From contig CAZXWN010000001.1 in the NCBI GenBank assembly GCA_964644695.1, positions 118,869 to 182,868 on the forward strand: a DNA stretch of 64,000 nucleotides. Direction: 5' to 3'. This stretch comes from an uncultured bacterium. GTDB taxonomy: Bacteria > UBP4 > UBA4092. The notes under the pieces are model-generated. The model searched no databases. It was not told where the DNA came from and worked only from the letters and a program-made list of their open reading frames with translations. Below, piece by piece: positions 2,251-62,237 of the stretch. The stretch's first letter is position 1. Each line of letters opens with the position of its first letter. The position numbers were made by a program, and so were the translations under genes.

Positions 2251-2295
2251 AAAATCAAAGAGCCTAATTGTAAATAACAATTAGGCTCTTTTTAA
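2251..2295. terminator. Bidirectional intrinsic terminator between the convergent kinase and oxidoreductase genes
   Basis: Perfect 12-bp stem agagcctaattg / caattaggctct with 7-nt loop taaataa, flanked by an A-run and TTTTT. Confidence 0.6.
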
Positions 2296-6011: not shown

Positions 6012-6056
6012 TAAAAATAAAAGCTCCTGTTCTTGTCATGAACAGGAGCTTTTTAT
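6012..6056. terminator. Bidirectional intrinsic terminator between sod (+) and galT (-)
   Basis: 12-bp stem aagctcctgttc / gaacaggagctt, loop ttgtcat, A-run upstream and TTTTT downstream. Confidence 0.65.
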
Positions 6057-8551: not shown

Positions 8552-8626
8552 AAGTATCTATTATTTTCTTCTATTTATACTCTAACCTCTTCTGTTAGCA
8601 ATAAATTACCTGTTCAAAAAGGATTT

Positions 8627-8676
8627 GATTGAATATCGAACGAGATGGATCTTGTTCGATGCTTCTTCGAATCACG
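8627..8676. repeat. Family-1 palindromic intergenic repeat, copy 1 (degenerate)
   Basis: GATTGAATATCGAACGAGATGGATCTTGTTCGATGCTTCTTCGAATCA. About 40 of 44 positions are identical to the copy at 40021-40074, whose core is the perfect 26-bp palindrome ATCGAACAAGATCGATCTTGTTCGAT. Confidence 0.6.
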
Positions 8677-8791: not shown

Positions 8792-8870
8792 TGGTCGGGG
8801 CGAGCCGATTCGAACGGCCGACCTCTCGCACCCCAAGCGAGTGCGCTAAACCAGGCTGCGCTACGCCCCG
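8792..8870 (-). tRNA. tRNA-Pro (anticodon GGG)
   Basis: The reverse complement folds as a cloverleaf: acceptor CGGGGCG/CGCCCCG, D-arm GCGC..GCGC, anticodon stem CTCGC/GCGAG with loop TTGGGGT (anticodon GGG), T-arm GGCCG-TTCGAAT-CGGCT, and an encoded CCA. Confidence 0.85.
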
Positions 8871-17894: not shown

Positions 17895-17910
17895 GGCTGA
17901 TTGTAATTAA

Positions 17911-17950
17911 AAGCCGTTACCGAAATAATCGGTAACGGCTTTTCTTTTTA
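17911..17950 (+). terminator. Intrinsic terminator after htrA
   Basis: 12-bp stem aagccgttaccg / cggtaacggctt, 7-nt loop, then TTCTTTTT. Confidence 0.6.
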
Positions 17951-24703: not shown

Positions 24704-24747
24704 GTGAATCATCCACGGAGCTGCTCCGACCAACTCCGTGGATGATT
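24704..24747. repeat. Family-2 hairpin repeat, copy A
   Basis: GAATCATCCACGGAG-CTGCTCCGACCAA-CTCCGTGGATGATTC: a perfect 15-bp stem with a 13-nt loop. Related copies are at 51640-51690 and 62190-62237. Confidence 0.6.
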
Positions 24748-24789
24748 CGTTTTAACTTTGTATTTAACTGATTGAAATTATGAATTGTA

Positions 24790-29555: not shown

Positions 29556-29598
29556 ATTAAAAACTCCCTGTTGCCCATGGGTAACAGGGAGTTTTTTT
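29556..29598. terminator. Bidirectional intrinsic terminator between convergent secreted-protein genes
   Basis: 10-bp stem actccctgtt / aacagggagt, palindromic 10-nt loop, A5 upstream and T7 downstream. Confidence 0.65.
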
Positions 29599-33617: not shown

Positions 33618-33694
<77 letters not shown>

Positions 33695-33708
33695 ATTGCA
33701 ACTTCAAG

Positions 33709-33743
33709 TCCCATGTTAAATAGTTATTAACATGGGATTTTTT
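33709..33743 (+). terminator. Intrinsic terminator immediately after tRNA-fMet
   Basis: 11-bp perfect stem tcccatgttaa / ttaacatggga, 7-nt loop, then T6. Confidence 0.65.
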
Positions 33744-33765
33744 AATGAATAATACTGGTAACTGA

Positions 33766-33794
33766 TTGACAGTAAATTGCGTCCTTGGTAGAAT
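33766..33794 (+). promoter_or_regulatory. Sigma-70-type promoter for the tRNA-Met and tRNA-Leu unit
   Basis: TTGACA, a 17-nt spacer, then TAGAAT (same architecture as the fMet promoter). Confidence 0.5.
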
Positions 33795-33841
33795 TTTCTT
33801 TCTACTGCCGTTGTAAACTAAAGCTGTAGAGGCTTATGTGT

Positions 33842-33917
33842 GGCGGGATAGCTCAGTTGGTAGAGCAAGCGGTTCATACCCGCTGTGTCGGGGGTTCAAA
33901 TCCCTCTCCCGCTACCA
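33842..33917 (+). tRNA. tRNA with CAT anticodon (elongator tRNA-Met, or possibly tRNA-Ile2 needing lysidine)
   Basis: GGCGGGATAGCTCAGTTGGTAGAGCAAGCGGTTCATACCCGCTGTGTCGGGGGTTCAAATCCCTCTCCCGCTACCA. Cloverleaf with anticodon loop TTCATAC. Confidence 0.85.
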
Positions 33918-33952
33918 TTTATATTGAAAACCTCGTTATTTATACCTCCCTG

Positions 33953-34037
33953 GCCCGGGTGGTGGAATTGGCAGACACGTACGTTTGAGGGGCGTATGGA
34001 GCAATCCGTGCGGGTTCAAATCCCGCCCCGGGCACCA
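33953..34037 (+). tRNA. tRNA-Leu (anticodon GAG), class II with a long variable arm
   Basis: GCCCGGGTGGTGGAATTGGCAGACACGTACGTTTGAGGGGCGTATGGAGCAATCCGTGCGGGTTCAAATCCCGCCCCGGGCACCA. Anticodon loop TTGAGGG, 14-nt variable arm, encoded CCA. Confidence 0.85.
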
Positions 34038-40022: not shown

Positions 40023-40074
40023 TTGAAGGAGTATCGAACAAGATCGATCTTGTTCGATACTATTTCGAAACAGA
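40021..40074. repeat. Family-1 palindromic intergenic repeat, copy 2 (intact)
   Basis: GATTGAAGGAGTATCGAACAAGATCGATCTTGTTCGATACTATTTCGAAACA contains the perfect 26-bp palindrome ATCGAACAAGATC|GATCTTGTTCGAT. It sits between convergent genes and overlaps their stop codons. Confidence 0.6.
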
Positions 40075-43544: not shown

Positions 43545-44960
43545 GTGCAAAAGGCCCATTTACTAATAGTCGATGATGAAAAAAATATCATTTCATCGTT
43601 AACACGTCCTCTTACCCGTGAAGGTTATAATATTCGGTCTGCATTAACCGGGCAGGAAGCTTTGGATATTCTTCAAAGAGCTGAGGATGGAACTGAAGAA
43701 GATATTGATATTTTGTTAGTCGATGTTTGGTTGCCTGACATTGATGGTTTACAAGTACTCCAGAAGGCCAAAGAGATTAGTCCGGACATTATACCAATTG
43801 TCATGTCAGGGCATGCCAGCATTGATACGGCTGTAAAGGCTACCAAGTTGGGCGCTTTCGATTTCATGGAGAAACCTCTCAATTTAGATAAAGTGTTACT
43901 TCTGATTGAGCATGCACTTAAATATCGAAGATTAGAGGAAGCTAACAGAGGGTTCCGTCAAGCTATTGAACAGGAATACCAGATTATTGGACAGAGCCAA
44001 CAGGTTCTCGACATGATAGAACGGATTTCCATTGTAGCAGCGACTCCGGGACGTGTCCTCATCGCCGGTGAAAATGGAACTGGAAAAGAATTGGTGGCGC
44101 GTGCTATTCATGCTAACAGTAATCGCCAGGAAGGTCCTTTTATTAAAGTGAATTGTGCAGCCATACCTAATGAACTGATTGAAAGTGAGCTTTTTGGCCA
44201 TGAAAAGGGTTCCTTTACGGGGGCGCATGAAAGAAAAAAAGGTAAGTTTGAGTTGGCTAATGAAGGGACTATTTTCCTGGATGAAATTGGGGATATGAGT
44301 TTACCCACACAAGCAAAGATTCTCCGGGTATTGACTGATAATGAAATAGACAGGGTAGGGGGGACAAGACCTATTCGAGTTGATGTTAGGGTCATTGCCG
44401 CTTCTAACAAAAATCTTGAGGAAGAGATAAAAAAGGGAAACTTCCGAGAAGATTTGTATTATCGCTTAAATGTAATTCCTTTCATGGTACCCCCATTACG
44501 AGAACGTCGTGAAGATATTCCCTTATTAGCGGGGCACTTTCTAAAACTCTATTGCCGTGAGACGCAGACCAAAGCGAGAAAATTTGACACCTCAGCTTAC
44601 AGGGTATTGATGAATTACGCCTGGCCTGGTAATGTACGAGAGCTGAAAAACATTGTTGAGCGTGTGGCAATCCTGACCCGTTCTGATGTGATTGGGGAAC
44701 GTGAAATCTCTAGTGTTTTGCCTCCCTCGGCAGTGATGACACAATCTTCAGTAAATAATACAAATCATGATATTTCCTGTTTTCCAGAAAAAAGCCTCAA
44801 AGAGCTTTGTGAAGAATATGAGAAAAAAGTTATTGTATCAGCATTGAAGGCTCATGATGGGAATGTCAGTAGAACTGCTGAGGTTCTGGATTTGGAACGT
44901 AGTCACCTTTATAAGAAATTGAGGCAATATAATATAAGCAAAGCATCTGATGCCGAATAA
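43545..44960 (+). CDS. Sigma-54-dependent response regulator (NtrC/Fis family: receiver, AAA+ domain and Fis HTH)
   Basis: Receiver (LLVDVWLPDIDG), Walker A GENGTGKE, GAFTGA-type GSFTGA motif, Walker B FLDEIGD, and a C-terminal HTH. Confidence 0.8.
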   Translation: MQKAHLLIVDDEKNIISSLTRPLTREGYNIRSALTGQEALDILQRAEDGTEEDIDILLVDVWLPDIDGLQVLQKAKEISPDIIPIVMSGHASIDTAVKATKLGAFDFMEKPLNLDKVLLLIEHALKYRRLEEANRGFRQAIEQEYQIIGQSQQVLDMIERISIVAATPGRVLIAGENGTGKELVARAIHANSNRQEGPFIKVNCAAIPNELIESELFGHEKGSFTGAHERKKGKFELANEGTIFLDEIGDMSLPTQAKILRVLTDNEIDRVGGTRPIRVDVRVIAASNKNLEEEIKKGNFREDLYYRLNVIPFMVPPLRERREDIPLLAGHFLKLYCRETQTKARKFDTSAYRVLMNYAWPGNVRELKNIVERVAILTRSDVIGEREISSVLPPSAVMTQSSVNNTNHDISCFPEKSLKELCEEYEKKVIVSALKAHDGNVSRTAEVLDLERSHLYKKLRQYNISKASDAE

Positions 44961-44998
44961 AAAAGAGGCCCATCAAACGATGGGCCTCTTTTCTTTTA
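44958..44998. terminator. Bidirectional intrinsic terminator
   Basis: 10-bp stem agaggcccat / atgggcctct, 6-nt loop, flanked by an A-run and TTTTCTTTT. Confidence 0.65.
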
Positions 44999-48845: not shown

Positions 48846-51518
48846 TTACTTTTTCAGTTCCGCAAGTTTCTCATTCAGTTTTGATACTTCAAGACGTAGT
48901 TGTTCCATTTTGGCTTTCTCTTTTTCAACAACATCCTGAGGTGCTTTTTCCACAAAAGATGGGTTGGATAGTTTATTTTGAACCATCGCCAGACCTTTTT
49001 CTAATTGTGGAATTTCTTTGGTTAACCGAATAATCTCTGACTCAATAATTTCTTCCGGTAGCGGAACCGATATTTCAATGTCTTTCACTAAAGCTGTGGA
49101 TGCGTGTTTTCCAGCTTCAATCTTTCTATCAATCTGCAAATGATTGGTTGGAATCAATGCACGGAAATACTCAGCATGAGCCTTTAAAAGAGCTAGCATA
49201 TTGTCATCCTGAGGTTTTAAGAGAATATCTACTTTCATCGCAGGTGGAATTCTCATTTCTCCGCGGATGTTTCGGATAGACTCAATAATTTGCATGATGA
49301 TGTTCATATCTTCTTCGGCACTTGGGCAATCCAGATTCTTAACCGCCTCTGGATAACTGGAAATCATAATGCTTTCTTTTGAAGACTCTGGTTTTTCTGG
49401 AAGAATTTGCCATATCTCTTCAGTAATGAAAGGCATAATAGGGTGTAATAATCTCAGTACGGTTTCCAATACTTGGGTGGCAACGCGTAGTGCTGTCAGC
49501 TTTTGGGTTAAATCGCCCCTTAATTGGGGTTTGATAAACTCCAGATACCAATCACAATATTCATGCCACAGGAATTGATATAAATCGCTGGCAGCCGTAT
49601 CAAATTCAAAGTTTTTCAGATGCTTATCTGTATTGTTGACTACGGCATTCATGCGGGAGAGGATCCAGCGGTCAGCCAGGCTGTATTCATAGTCAGGTTT
49701 ATCAATGGTTGTTATATCAATATCGTTCCATTGCATTAAAACAAAGCGGGAAGCATTCCAAATCTTATTACAGAAATTTCGGTATCCTTCTATTCGTTTT
49801 GGATCCAGATTCATATTACGACCCTGGGCCGCCAGTGCACAAAGTGTAAAACGAAGGGCATCGGTACCTGATTCTTCTGTGATTTTAAGGGGGTCAATGG
49901 CATTGCCCGTCGATTTAGACATCTTTTTCCCTTGTGCATCACGAACCAGAGCATGGAAATACACATCTTTGAAGGGAATCTCACCTGTAAACTTCAGACC
50001 CATCATAATCATTCTGGCAACCCAGAAGAAAATAATGTCATGGGAAGTAGAAAGAACAGAGGTTGGATAAAACTTCTCTAATTCAAGAGTCTCATTGGGC
50101 CACCCTAAGGTTGAAAATGGCCACAGTGCAGAACTGAACCAGGTATCCAACACATCGGAGTCCTGCTGTATTTTGGTGGAGCCGCAATGAGAGCATGAAG
50201 TAGGGTCGGTACGGCTTACAGTTTCTTTACCGCAATCTTCACAGTACCAAACGGGGATTCTATGTCCCCACCAAAGCTGACGAGAAATACACCAGTCACG
50301 AACATTTTCCATCCATGAGAAGTAAGTGTTTTCCCAACTCTTAGGATGGAAATGGATTCGTTCATTTTTCACCGCTTCAATGGCGGGTTCCGCCAGTGGC
50401 CGCATCTTAACAAACCACTGTAATGACAGATAAGGTTCAACAATGGTGTCGCAGCGATAACAGTGTCTAATGGCATGTTGGTAATCATCAATCTTGAGAA
50501 GATAACCTTGTTCTTTGAGGTCTTCAACCACAGCCTTGCGTGCGGCAAGCGCTTTCATTCCCTGATACTTGCCACCGTTTTCATTAATAGAGGCATCAGG
50601 GGTCAATACATTGATTTGTGGTAGATTATGCTTGATACCGATTTGATAGTCATTCGGGTCATGCGCCGGAGTGATTTTAAGGCATCCGGTTCCAAATTTT
50701 GGGTCAACATAATTATCAGCAATTACTGGTATGACACGGTCTGTTAATGGAAGACGCACATTCTGACCAATTAAATGACTATAACGGGTGTCTTCTGGAT
50801 GCACAGCAACAGCAGTATCCCCCAACATGGTTTCGGGGCGGGTGGTGGCGACGATGACATATTCGTTTTCTGAGCCATCTAATGGATATTTTATGTGCCA
50901 AAGATGACCTGCAGTATCTTTGGGTTCTGCTTCATCATCTGAAAGGGCCGTTTTGCAACGAGGACACCAGTTTACAATATAATTGCTGCGGTAAATAAGT
51001 TTTTCTTCATAAAGCCGGACAAACACTTCACGAACAGCCTGGGAGAGTCCTTCGTCCATTGTAAATCGTTCTCTATCCCAATCGCAGGATGAACCCATTT
51101 TCTTTAATTGCCGAATAATGGTTCCTCCATATTCTTCCTTCCACTGCCATACACGTTCCAGAAATTTTTCGCGGCCTAAATCATGGCGAGTCAATCCTTC
51201 TTTTTTTAGGGATTTTTCAACCACATTCTGAGTGGCAATTCCCGCATGGTCTGTACCCGGAATCCAACAGGCGTTAAATCCTCTCATACGATGCCAGCGG
51301 ACTAATATATCCTGGAGGGTATTGTTTAGAGCATGACCAATATGTAATATCCCCGTGACATTGGGGGGAGGAATAACAATGACAAATGAAGGTTTGTTTT
51401 CTGAAGGATCTGCGTGAAAATAGCGTTTGGCCAGCCACTCAGAATACCATTTTTCTTCCACATGACTGGGATCGTACTTGCTTTCTAACTCGCGTGTTGG
51501 ATTAGACATAATATACAC
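48846..51518 (-). CDS. valS: Valine--tRNA ligase
   Basis: Class I HIGH (PNVTGILHIGH) and KMSKS (KMSKSTGN) motifs, and a C-terminal coiled-coil. 890 aa. Confidence 0.9.
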   Translation of the reverse strand: MYIMSNPTRELESKYDPSHVEEKWYSEWLAKRYFHADPSENKPSFVIVIPPPNVTGILHIGHALNNTLQDILVRWHRMRGFNACWIPGTDHAGIATQNVVEKSLKKEGLTRHDLGREKFLERVWQWKEEYGGTIIRQLKKMGSSCDWDRERFTMDEGLSQAVREVFVRLYEEKLIYRSNYIVNWCPRCKTALSDDEAEPKDTAGHLWHIKYPLDGSENEYVIVATTRPETMLGDTAVAVHPEDTRYSHLIGQNVRLPLTDRVIPVIADNYVDPKFGTGCLKITPAHDPNDYQIGIKHNLPQINVLTPDASINENGGKYQGMKALAARKAVVEDLKEQGYLLKIDDYQHAIRHCYRCDTIVEPYLSLQWFVKMRPLAEPAIEAVKNERIHFHPKSWENTYFSWMENVRDWCISRQLWWGHRIPVWYCEDCGKETVSRTDPTSCSHCGSTKIQQDSDVLDTWFSSALWPFSTLGWPNETLELEKFYPTSVLSTSHDIIFFWVARMIMMGLKFTGEIPFKDVYFHALVRDAQGKKMSKSTGNAIDPLKITEESGTDALRFTLCALAAQGRNMNLDPKRIEGYRNFCNKIWNASRFVLMQWNDIDITTIDKPDYEYSLADRWILSRMNAVVNNTDKHLKNFEFDTAASDLYQFLWHEYCDWYLEFIKPQLRGDLTQKLTALRVATQVLETVLRLLHPIMPFITEEIWQILPEKPESSKESIMISSYPEAVKNLDCPSAEEDMNIIMQIIESIRNIRGEMRIPPAMKVDILLKPQDDNMLALLKAHAEYFRALIPTNHLQIDRKIEAGKHASTALVKDIEISVPLPEEIIESEIIRLTKEIPQLEKGLAMVQNKLSNPSFVEKAPQDVVEKEKAKMEQLRLEVSKLNEKLAELKK

Positions 51519-51639: not shown

Positions 51640-51690
51640 AACGAAAGATTCACGGAGCTGTTCTGAGCAACTCCGTGAATCATTCGTTGA
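51640..51690. repeat. Family-2 hairpin repeat, copy B (stem with one mismatch)
   Basis: AACGAAAGATTCACGGAG-CTGTTCTGAGCAA-CTCCGTGAATCATTCGTT. It lies between the valS start and the cimA/leuA stop. Confidence 0.55.
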
Positions 51691-58937: not shown

Positions 58938-61016
58938 TTATCTGGCTTTATTCCTATAGGCATTTGCTTTGGTTTTGGCTGCCTCAGCGGCGTCTGTTTC
59001 ACCAGACATACTATAAAGCATATATAAATTTACCCAACCTTCATAACTATCAGGTCTGATTTTGACTGCTTTCATAAAACATTTTTCTGCAATAAGGAAC
59101 TGATTTTGTGTTGCATAAGCTGCTCCCAGGCTTATCCATGCATCATGGGATATTGGATTCAACTCGAGAGCTTTTTTAGCTTCTTGAATAGCCATCTCGG
59201 GAGAGCGGCAGATATTAGCCCAGATTGCTCTCTTGAGATAAGGGTCAACATACTCCGATTCGTAAGAGGAGGCCTGAATGGATTCATTAAAAGCAATATT
59301 CCAGTCTTGACGCTCTGCTGCAAGTATGGAGAAGTTATTACGAATCTGGGCAAAAGGATGAATATCTCTAATAATAACGGGGTAGGGTGAAACTCCTGTT
59401 GCCGGATCAAGTTCATTTACCCATTGATTCCAATTCATAGTTGAAGTGTAAGAATAATTAAACTCTTCACTCGAGATTCCTTCAGGAGTAAGACGGGCCC
59501 ATAACCCCGAAGGAATTGCCTGTACAATCCAGCGATTCCCTTGTATCAAGCTGTATTCAGCAAATACAGGCCTGTTTTTTTGAAGAGCAGCAGTGATGAT
59601 GGATGGGTTAATCTTTTGGCGGTTAATGCTGACAATTTCAATCTTTGGCCGCGCCCCTTTTATTTGCTGCTGATATAACAAATTAAAATCAATATAGACT
59701 GAACGAACTAATACCAGTGAATTATCGGGAAGTTGTTTTAATAAAATCTGTCCAAACCGGTCAGGTGCTCCATTTGAGATATGTTTAATAACATTCCATG
59801 ATGAATTAACCTGCCATGCCCAAAGCCCAGTCAAAATAAAAAAAGTGATCCACTGCCAACTAACAGCCAGTGGGATCTTATAAGTAGGACATTCAAGTCT
59901 TTCTGCCAGCCATATACCAAAACGAATGATTGCATAAATCCCCAGTGAACATAAACCACCCCACAGATAAATAGAGGGAAGCAAGAATGATGGGAATTCA
60001 GGTTCAATGATTTCGGAGTGTCCATAGAAAACGGCCATCCCAATATTTGTCAAAATAATTAAAATTGGGAGAGAAGCCATAATTGCTTTGCGGCGGATAA
60101 TATATGCGAGTCCACCCAAACCGAGAGCAATTCCCCATGGCTTAAAAGTCATGAGAAATACTTTGCCTGTTTCAAAAATAAAATATCGAACTGCAATCCA
60201 AGACCGATTAAATACCTTTTCATGGAACTCCGCCTGGCTTAAGTATCCCCACAATGCCTTGGAGGTGGTCAATGAAATGCCGTGATGAAGTACTGGGTGA
60301 GTTGAAGAACGAATAGGAAGATAAAGCGTTACCAGAAAGCCAAGGAAAAACAACCCAGGAATAGCTGTTAACCAGGTTCTTCCTTCAGGGGATTTCCATG
60401 GTCTTGTATATAAAAGTATCAAAATAAAAGATGGAAAACAGATAATCATTTGGGCATGGACGGTTAATCCCAGTCCAAGGATAAAAGCTGCAAATGAAAG
60501 ATATTTTCCCTGCTCGGTAGAAGATTCTGAGCTCAGAACTTTAACCAGCGTCCATACAAAAGACCCAATAAAGAAAAGGTTGAAAGTATAAATTTCAGCA
60601 ATAACTGACTGCGACCAATATATCTGTGTAAAAGCCAAACCCAGTAATCCGAGACTATATCCAATCCATCTGGCAAATGGATATAAAGTGGTGGGAAGAA
60701 AATTACGGTTTATTAAAAACAGCCAGTAGAGAGAAACGGCTCCAGCAATAGCAGAAAAGAAGTTGACACAAACTGCCGTATTACTCAGGAAATCGGGAAT
60801 TGTGAATAATTTACCTAAAAGTAAATATAAGGGAAAACCTGTTGGATGGGGTATTCCCAATTCTTTAACAGCCGTAATTAATTCACCACTGTCCCACCAA
60901 TATAAAGAGGGGCAAAGTGTTCGTATGAAAACGAATAACGCAGTAAGGACAATTAAGAACCCTGGCCAATCTCTGTTGAAAACTTTCAATATATTTTGTT
61001 TATTGAGTTTTTTCAT
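58938..61016 (-). CDS. DUF2723-family polytopic membrane protein (GT-C-like) with C-terminal TPR repeats
   Basis: N-terminal YWWDSGE motif, about 11 TM helices, and C-terminal TPR repeats. 692 aa. The start overlaps the mutY stop by 4 nt. Confidence 0.5.
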   Translation of the reverse strand: MKKLNKQNILKVFNRDWPGFLIVLTALFVFIRTLCPSLYWWDSGELITAVKELGIPHPTGFPLYLLLGKLFTIPDFLSNTAVCVNFFSAIAGAVSLYWLFLINRNFLPTTLYPFARWIGYSLGLLGLAFTQIYWSQSVIAEIYTFNLFFIGSFVWTLVKVLSSESSTEQGKYLSFAAFILGLGLTVHAQMIICFPSFILILLYTRPWKSPEGRTWLTAIPGLFFLGFLVTLYLPIRSSTHPVLHHGISLTTSKALWGYLSQAEFHEKVFNRSWIAVRYFIFETGKVFLMTFKPWGIALGLGGLAYIIRRKAIMASLPILIILTNIGMAVFYGHSEIIEPEFPSFLLPSIYLWGGLCSLGIYAIIRFGIWLAERLECPTYKIPLAVSWQWITFFILTGLWAWQVNSSWNVIKHISNGAPDRFGQILLKQLPDNSLVLVRSVYIDFNLLYQQQIKGARPKIEIVSINRQKINPSIITAALQKNRPVFAEYSLIQGNRWIVQAIPSGLWARLTPEGISSEEFNYSYTSTMNWNQWVNELDPATGVSPYPVIIRDIHPFAQIRNNFSILAAERQDWNIAFNESIQASSYESEYVDPYLKRAIWANICRSPEMAIQEAKKALELNPISHDAWISLGAAYATQNQFLIAEKCFMKAVKIRPDSYEGWVNLYMLYSMSGETDAAEAAKTKANAYRNKAR

Positions 61017-62137: not shown

Positions 62138-62189
62138 GGTTAATTATATCAACAGTCATTGAAGAATAAAGTCAGAGGATTCGAATCAT

Positions 62190-62237
62190 CCACGGACCTG
62201 GTCCGAACAGCTCCGTGGATGATTCGCGGAATAAACG
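62190..62237. repeat. Family-2 hairpin repeat, copy C
   Basis: CGAATCATCCACGGA-CCTGGTCCGAACAGC-TCCGTGGATGATTCG: a perfect 15-bp stem. Confidence 0.6.

Follow-up and report, generated by a model that had tools for sequence, protein, structure and literature searches.

A dispersed intergenic palindrome, probably a REP-like repeat, in an uncultured bacterium

A hairpin that recurs between unrelated genes raises the question of how its copies arose and whether the host makes use of them. In the DNA studied here, a stretch of 64,000 nucleotides that we refer to as the window, an earlier note had described three copies of such a hairpin and had proposed that they form a REP/MITE-like family with a possible role as terminators. 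In this study, the anatomy of the element, its distribution inside and outside the species, and the possible routes of its spread are considered in turn.

The palindrome and its three copies in the window

All three copies are present, and all of them are intergenic:

Copy A, 24704-24750 (core 24706-24748): palindrome with a perfect 15-bp outer stem, GAATCATCCACGGAG/CTCCGTGGATGATTC.
Copy B, 51640-51688: palindrome with "type 2" arms, GAATGATTCACGGAG, in which two stem positions are changed on both arms relative to copies A and C.
Copy C, 62182-62226: palindrome with A-like arms bearing one C.C mismatch, subfamily GGAC...CTCC.

The positions first given for copies A and B were broadly right, but copy C had been placed at 62190-62237, which is shifted rightward by approximately 8-11 nt. 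The claim that one hairpin occurs three times in the window was borne out, and the number of copies exceeds chance. When the 15-mer of the arm was searched with up to three mismatches, eight matches were found in the window against 1.55 expected, and none of 100 shuffles reached eight. Six of these matches are the arms of copies A, B and C, and the other two (49259 and 60513) stand alone inside coding ORFs, namely valS (48846-51518) and a 692-aa ORF (58938-61016). The match at 49259, with two mismatches, was tried as a fourth copy and rejected as a lone arm in the valS coding sequence; covariance model R1 detected no fourth copy in the 64-kb window. When the copies were aligned with 40-nt flanks, their similarity was found to end at the palindrome edges, and the flanks are unrelated. 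The possibility raised at the outset, that only these three copies exist and that they lie in duplicated segments, gave way to the finding of 11 further sites and of flanking homology that ends at the hairpin. With this excess of arm matches, unrelated flanks and 14 distinct sites, chance similarity or segmental duplication has a negligible probability. A CRISPR array was also rejected because distances of 26.9 kb and 10.5 kb separate the copies, which occur singly at every locus.

The gene contexts had been identified correctly, as confirmed by the ORFs and by Pfam. Copy A lies in a 174-nt region between the divergent starts of a 254-aa ORF (24615, minus strand) and a pullulanase gene (24790, plus strand). 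Copy B, read on the minus strand, is located 38 nt past the stop of a cimA/leuA-like gene (51726) and upstream of valS, approximately 30 nt before a valS promoter-like site (51609-51581, minus strand). Copy C lies between the divergent starts of mutY (62137, minus strand) and mazG (62384, plus strand), 43 nt from the mutY start. As a separate matter, the mechanically called valS ORF starts at a GTG (51518) and encodes 890 aa. Because an ATG lies 9 nt downstream in the strain alignment and the homologues of the closest relatives have 887 aa, the true valS start is probably 51509.

The earlier note had described the element as two stems around a 13-nt loop. The perfect 15-bp stem of copy A, the loop sequences and the small inner palindromes in the loops (GGAGCTGCTCC and GGACCTGGTCC) are as described there, but the loop itself is not a loop. 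In each window copy, a repeat finder returned arms of 21-24 nt that are 88-91% complementary and separated by 1 nt, and the supposed loop is therefore the degenerate inner part of a near-complete palindrome of 45-49 bp. An alignment of 14 copies, comprising copies A, B and C and those of 11 further sites in the set L002-L014, gave the consensus AACGAATCATCCACGGAGCTGCTC-S-GAGCAGCTCCGTGGATGATTCGTT. In this alignment, an outer stem of 14 bp (GAATCATCCACGGA/TCCGTGGATGATTC) is invariant or nearly so and the centre, TC-S-GA, is invariant; between them lies an inner stem with five variable positions per side, in which 21-50% of the cells are unpaired, depending on the pair. Just outside the palindrome, nothing is conserved except an A/T before CGAATC, and a GTAG at the hairpin foot occurs in copy A only. 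Taken alone, the conserved 15-nt arm has no palindromic symmetry, and the left sub-palindrome GGAGC-T-GCTCC was rejected as a functional unit since no more than 4 of the 14 copies have it in perfect form.

The check by RNA folding that had been proposed gave stable hairpins for the window copies on either strand, with energies of -27 to -33 kcal/mol and z-scores of -5.3 to -8.4 against shuffled sequences. For copy A, the values are -27.3/-33.1 kcal/mol and -6.6/-8.4, and its score with model R1 is 72.8 bits. Across the 14 copies, 85.7% of all alignment cells pair, and covariation is not above that of column shuffles. Therefore, the family is conserved as a sequence and not as a freely covarying structure, and a selected RNA or DNA structure evidenced by covariation was rejected. 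The double changes of copy B were likewise rejected as family-wide compensation; they represent a second arm variant, GAA(A/T)GATTCACGGAG, which is unpaired in the chimeric copy L006.

Such a pattern of conservation also bears on a reading in which the copies are binding sites for a dimeric DNA-binding protein, for example a global regulator or a nucleoid-associated or chromosome-organising protein, that would recognise two 15-bp half-sites approximately 13 bp apart. Several features agree with this reading: the arm and the TC-S-GA centre show strict invariance, whereas the inner stem is variable and frequently unpaired; covariation shows no excess; and divergent promoter regions harbour two of the three copies in the window. 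However, copies also occur between convergent gene ends and between tandem genes, and related genera are without them at orthologous promoters. Known operators and sites of the parS/matS/NBS type are far shorter than the 45-49 bp of this element. Moreover, both half-sites are altered jointly in copy B, and L006 combines the two arm types. We consider binding sites a very unlikely explanation.

The window also holds a second, unrelated palindromic repeat family (...TATCGAACAAGATC/GATCTTGTTCGATA...), whose two copies, 82% identical over 50 nt, are found at 8625-8674, between a MerR gene and a tRNA-Pro gene, and at 40023-40072, where the genes for a metallophosphoesterase and a 5-FTHF cyclo-ligase converge at their stops. 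This is probably the "family 1" of the earlier note. The tRNA-Pro(GGG) gene (8792-8870, minus strand) was called by ARAGORN and does not appear in the Rfam scan at gathering scores, which returned only three tRNAs (33618-34037).

Dispersal and copying within the species

The family was sought elsewhere with the stringent pattern CACGGAS-N11-15-CTCCGTGRATSATTC, in which each match needs one good arm. Thirteen metagenome loci were recovered, and 12 of them came from metagenome 3300009768, which also holds the species of the window. Two of the loci are orthologues of copies C and A, and the other 11 are new sites. The documented total is at least 14 sites in one species, with 20 exact 14-mer copies of the arm, in a count that depends on a single stringent pattern and a fragmented metagenome. 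Every one of the 14 sites falls between genes, and none of the copies is spanned by an ORF of 80 aa or more. The new sites adjoin genes for FtsY, TilS, AhpC, JAB, VWA, GH20, RsmD, YhhN, PhoU/Na-Pi and hypothetical proteins. Where both neighbours are known, two sites are divergent, five tandem and two convergent. Random intergenic placement leads to a rough expectation of 1:2:1, which the tally approximately follows, so no preference for gene orientation is apparent. A stop codon precedes the palindrome by 27-140 nt at no fewer than 9 of the 14 sites. The exact 12-mer arms in the collected loci all fall inside recognised palindromes, and each locus has one palindrome; no locus has two copies flanking a gene, and no REP doublets occur.

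The same species was found in the JGI metagenomes 3300009768 and 3300021167 and in ENA and Logan assemblies. Ten of the proteins that flank the sites were looked up, and seven were present in the protein collection. Six of these seven belong to 90% clusters with at least three other members, one of them from NCBI; the cluster mates come from NCBI, Logan and JGI and, for most clusters, from ENA as well. The seventh protein is alone in its 90% cluster and is itself encoded on an NCBI contig. The NCBI contigs bearing the flanking proteins measure 838,389 bp (the window's own), 294,258, 139,543, 113,149 and 66,723 bp. Because the NCBI cluster members are distributed over these five contigs, we infer that one genome (MAG) carries the copies on five or more of its contigs. 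Three Logan contigs, each at a different site, have one of their ends within the hairpin (L017:1-27, L020:21-32 and L029:3738-3774), as is expected of a multi-copy palindrome. The same stringent pattern, applied to 185,579 species genomes that do not include the source genome, had one match, in a Zhuqueibacter MAG (L001). This match was rejected as a copy: approximately three chance matches are expected, its right arm is not conserved, and it scores 13 bits with model R1.

The main evidence on the origin of the copies is provided by derived states that are shared at unrelated sites. There are two arm types: both arms of copy B are of type 2, and types 1 and 2 are combined in the chimeric L006. 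Only 2 of 49 positions distinguish the copies at L002 and L013, which have a private inner variant in common although their loci are unrelated. Furthermore, a C.C mismatch is common to six copies, in the same polarity relative to the central base. When the copies are oriented with the central base as C, 13 mismatches fall on the left (5') arm and 3 on the right, and six of the seven C.C mismatches are found on the 5'-arm side. A genuine strand polarity is thereby hinted at, in what is otherwise a symmetric element, although the asymmetry is partly a matter of ascertainment because the search pattern required one good arm. The shared derived states in these sequences point to the copies having stemmed from master sequences by copying.

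The distribution among strains and relatives was examined at the same sites. At sites A, B, C and L002, the element is retained in strains of the species whose intergenic sequences there are approximately 97% identical. The site of copy A is occupied in two other strain populations, copy B is kept in strain L019, and copy C is present in four other assemblies of the species. No presence/absence polymorphism was found at these four sites among three to five strain populations; empty sites were looked for, and every strain examined carries the element, so that movement was not directly observed. Outside the species, model R1 found no copy in approximately 82 kb from the related genera L021, L024, L025, L030 and L031, and no element stands upstream of mutY in two related genera. 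From these sequences, we conclude that the amplification is specific to the species. The species of the window is itself distant from named organisms: the nearest named homologue of its valS is that of Geobacter (58%), an unclassified "MAG: bacterium" reaches 64% and other relatives 71-75%, and the nearest named MutY match is from Planctomycetota (53%).

Taken as a whole, we believe that the element is probably a species-specific, non-coding hairpin repeat of the REP kind, copied by a putative trans-acting enzyme, largely quiescent, and used by the host at some of its sites. Under this reading, a master sequence would have been amplified by copy-and-paste, the copies having been made by an enzyme supplied in trans. 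The enzyme would most likely act on the single-stranded hairpin, as do the HUH/Y1 transposases (RAYT and the TnpA of IS200/IS605). Enzymes of this class move REPs without target duplication. The family may now be largely quiescent and inherited vertically, and individual copies may have been put to host use.

The enzyme, the parent element and possible host roles

The RAYT gene that was to be looked for nearby did not appear. Neither Y1_Tnp/RAYT (PF01797) nor any other transposase domain was found in 28 ORFs of the window, which comprise all non-nested ORFs of 100 to approximately 400 aa and the larger genes adjoining the copies, and the 18 ORFs flanking the other 11 sites contain no Y1_Tnp or other transposase domain. 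Known RNA families did not account for the element either. An Rfam scan of the whole window at gathering scores returned tRNAs only, and a permissive scan of copies A and B yielded sub-threshold matches to miRNA hairpins, at 28 bits or less against the 60-100 required. The arm sequence is absent from the literature searched.

The proposal of a REP/MITE-like family holds insofar as this is a dispersed hairpin family; assignment to the REPs in the strict sense is tentative, since no RAYT was found in the ORFs examined, and the MITE half of the proposal is weakened by the lack of a target-site duplication. A minimal MITE would be built of the terminal inverted repeats of a DDE-type IS, two of them abutting each other, and moved by the transposase of that IS. 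The two inverted arms of 22-24 nt around a 1-nt spacer could be such terminal repeats, and the element is dispersed in intergenic DNA as a MITE would be. However, no direct target-site duplication was found at any of the 14 copies; beyond the arms, the inverted symmetry is prolonged into the neighbouring bases (AAC...GTT), and no empty site similar enough to fix the boundaries was found. The collected loci contain no solo arm and no arm beside a transposase gene. In addition, no match, and hence no IS end, was found on 72,556 plasmids or 50,697 phage records, nor in viral contigs. We regard a MITE as improbable.

The site between cimA and valS provides the clearest view of a possible host role. 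This site differs among three genera, and the valS promoter, TTGACG-17-TATAAT, is conserved downstream in all three. In L021, the site holds a canonical terminator (AACCCCGATTCTTC...GAGGAATCGGGGTTTTCTTTT). In L023, it holds a different palindrome with 25-nt arms (R1 score 32 bits), which has an outer ATCATTCC/GGGATG module and an apical CAGCTCCGAAC module in common with the present family but contains an extra 13-bp inner stem. The elements of two genera at this site are thus alike in their outer ATCATYCC/GGRATG and apical CAGCTCCGAAC parts, whereas the sequence between these parts differs. In L023, the cimA stop and the palindrome are further separated by an additional stretch of approximately 400 nt (L023:9456-9850) in which no gene is called; this stretch is absent from the species of the window and from L021.

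On the minus (cimA) strand, copy B was called terminator-like, with a shortened stem and the tail TTTCGTTAAA, and it is the only copy so called; nothing passes the terminator scan at copies A and C. Because a canonical terminator takes this position in a relative and the tail of copy B is enriched in T, copy B probably terminates or insulates the transcription of cimA, as judged from sequence. Copies A and C, which lie in divergent promoter/5'-UTR regions, could at most be 5' stabilisers or DNA-structure elements. Ordinary bidirectional terminators composed of an A-tract, a stem and a T-tract are common in the window (2257-2291, 6019-6053, 17909-17943, 29559-29596 and 44956-44997), and the genome therefore does not depend on U-less hairpins for termination.

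An extension of the terminator role to all copies would make them intrinsic terminators or insulators that are poor in U-tracts and kept alike by selection or gene conversion, not by transposition. In addition to copy B, which stands where L021 has its canonical terminator, this reading can draw on the sites downstream of stop codons (at least 9 of 14) and on the GTTTT or GTTTA that follows several copies on the side of the upstream gene. Nevertheless, divergent starts flank two of the three copies in the window, so that at these there is nothing to terminate, and at least five T in the eight positions after the full palindrome were observed on only 2 of 28 strand-sides, A(+) and L004(-). The existence of ordinary A-tract/T-tract terminators (such as 6019-6053, 17909-17943 and 29559-29596) and a context tally close to random intergenic placement also argue against this reading, and it leaves unexplained the invariant TC-S-GA centre and the shared private variants. 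We consider it unlikely. With a single copy called by the scan and T-rich tails so rare, the terminator role, which had been suggested for the family, fits copy B and perhaps a few other copies but not the family as a whole.

Comparison with known repeat systems

Related genera have long near-perfect palindromes of their own, with arms of 16-27 nt and 0-2 nt between them:

L023, 18606-18648: palindrome of a related genus.
L027, 22-54: palindrome of a related genus.
L031, 1657-1711, 13197-13236 and 13462-13497: palindromes of a related genus.

Some of these recur within a contig, GGGGGTAGWGTGTTTC-G-GAAACACTCTACCCCC twice and the AACCCCGTTAGAAA type twice. Families of long intergenic palindromes thus appear to be a trait of the whole lineage. 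By analogy, and drawing on the species of the window and on the relatives L023/L027 and L031, one might speculate that the wider lineage maintains species-specific families of near-perfect palindromes of 40-55 bp with a single central base, in a long-lived, vertically inherited partnership of hairpin repeat and enzyme. Such a partnership would be analogous to REPIN-RAYT, perhaps with a different or novel hairpin-recognising enzyme. We hold this doubtful; if true, it would place an analogue of REPIN-RAYT in a phylum where none is known.

For the element itself, what is new is the sequence and the host, and it is otherwise an ordinary REP-like repeat that leaves the current view of bacterial repeats unchanged. 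For an uncultured bacterium it is a clean marker of strain and species, it accounts for the breaks in short-read assemblies of the organism at these points, and model R1 is a concrete means of counting such repeats. Copy B, set against the canonical terminator of the sister genus, is a tidy case of a repeat in a terminator slot. If a cognate enzyme were found, REPIN-RAYT-like systems would reach beyond the well-studied Proteobacteria.

Among the known systems, the Correia elements of Neisseria, ERIC/IRU and the RUP elements of Streptococcus are 100-150 bp long, contain internal sequence and duplicate their target (TA in the case of Correia). The present element resembles them in its inverted-repeat build, its intergenic dispersal and its occasional co-option for termination or mRNA processing. 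It differs in being only 45-49 bp long and fully palindromic, with no visible target-site duplication and no parent IS. The TRIT motif of Mycobacterium and the paired DUS terminators of Neisseria are repeated, conserved terminator hairpins. The likeness here is a near-identical long hairpin repeated past genes, with copy B in the terminator position and followed by a T-enriched tail. Unlike these terminators, the present element has two of its three window copies between genes that start divergently, mostly lacks a U-tract, and matches no Rfam family at the gathering score.

The closest comparison is with the REPs. In E. coli and Pseudomonas, these repeats have a conserved tetranucleotide of the GTAG type at the 5' foot of the hairpin, and no such conserved 5' tetranucleotide is found in the present element. 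REPs and REPINs are extragenic hairpin repeats that persist vertically and flank RAYT genes present in single copy, and "long palindromic REP singlets" have been described in Pseudomonas fluorescens SBW25 (PMC3337134, PMC5581495). They are recognised by 16-mers whose frequency is far above a chance level of approximately 5, and genomes contain tens to hundreds of copies (PMC5581495). Compared with classical REPs, the 14 documented sites, which come from a metagenome pattern scan, are far fewer. The element is also longer (45-49 bp) than a typical REP (20-40 nt), forms no doublets, has an arm that is not palindromic, and occurs as one palindrome per locus. Its centre, TC-S-GA, is conserved, unlike the spacers of REPINs; no RAYT was found in the ORFs of the window or in those flanking the other sites; and the host belongs to a deep uncultured lineage. 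A REPIN-like layout, with conserved ends and a variable, partly paired middle, can be claimed by analogy only. Nevertheless, the element agrees with the REPs and REPINs in being a short extragenic palindrome with a stable single-strand hairpin and a species-specific sequence, which lies beside housekeeping genes in any orientation, falls into "quasispecies" subfamilies, makes no target-site duplication, and is stable at orthologous sites between strains.
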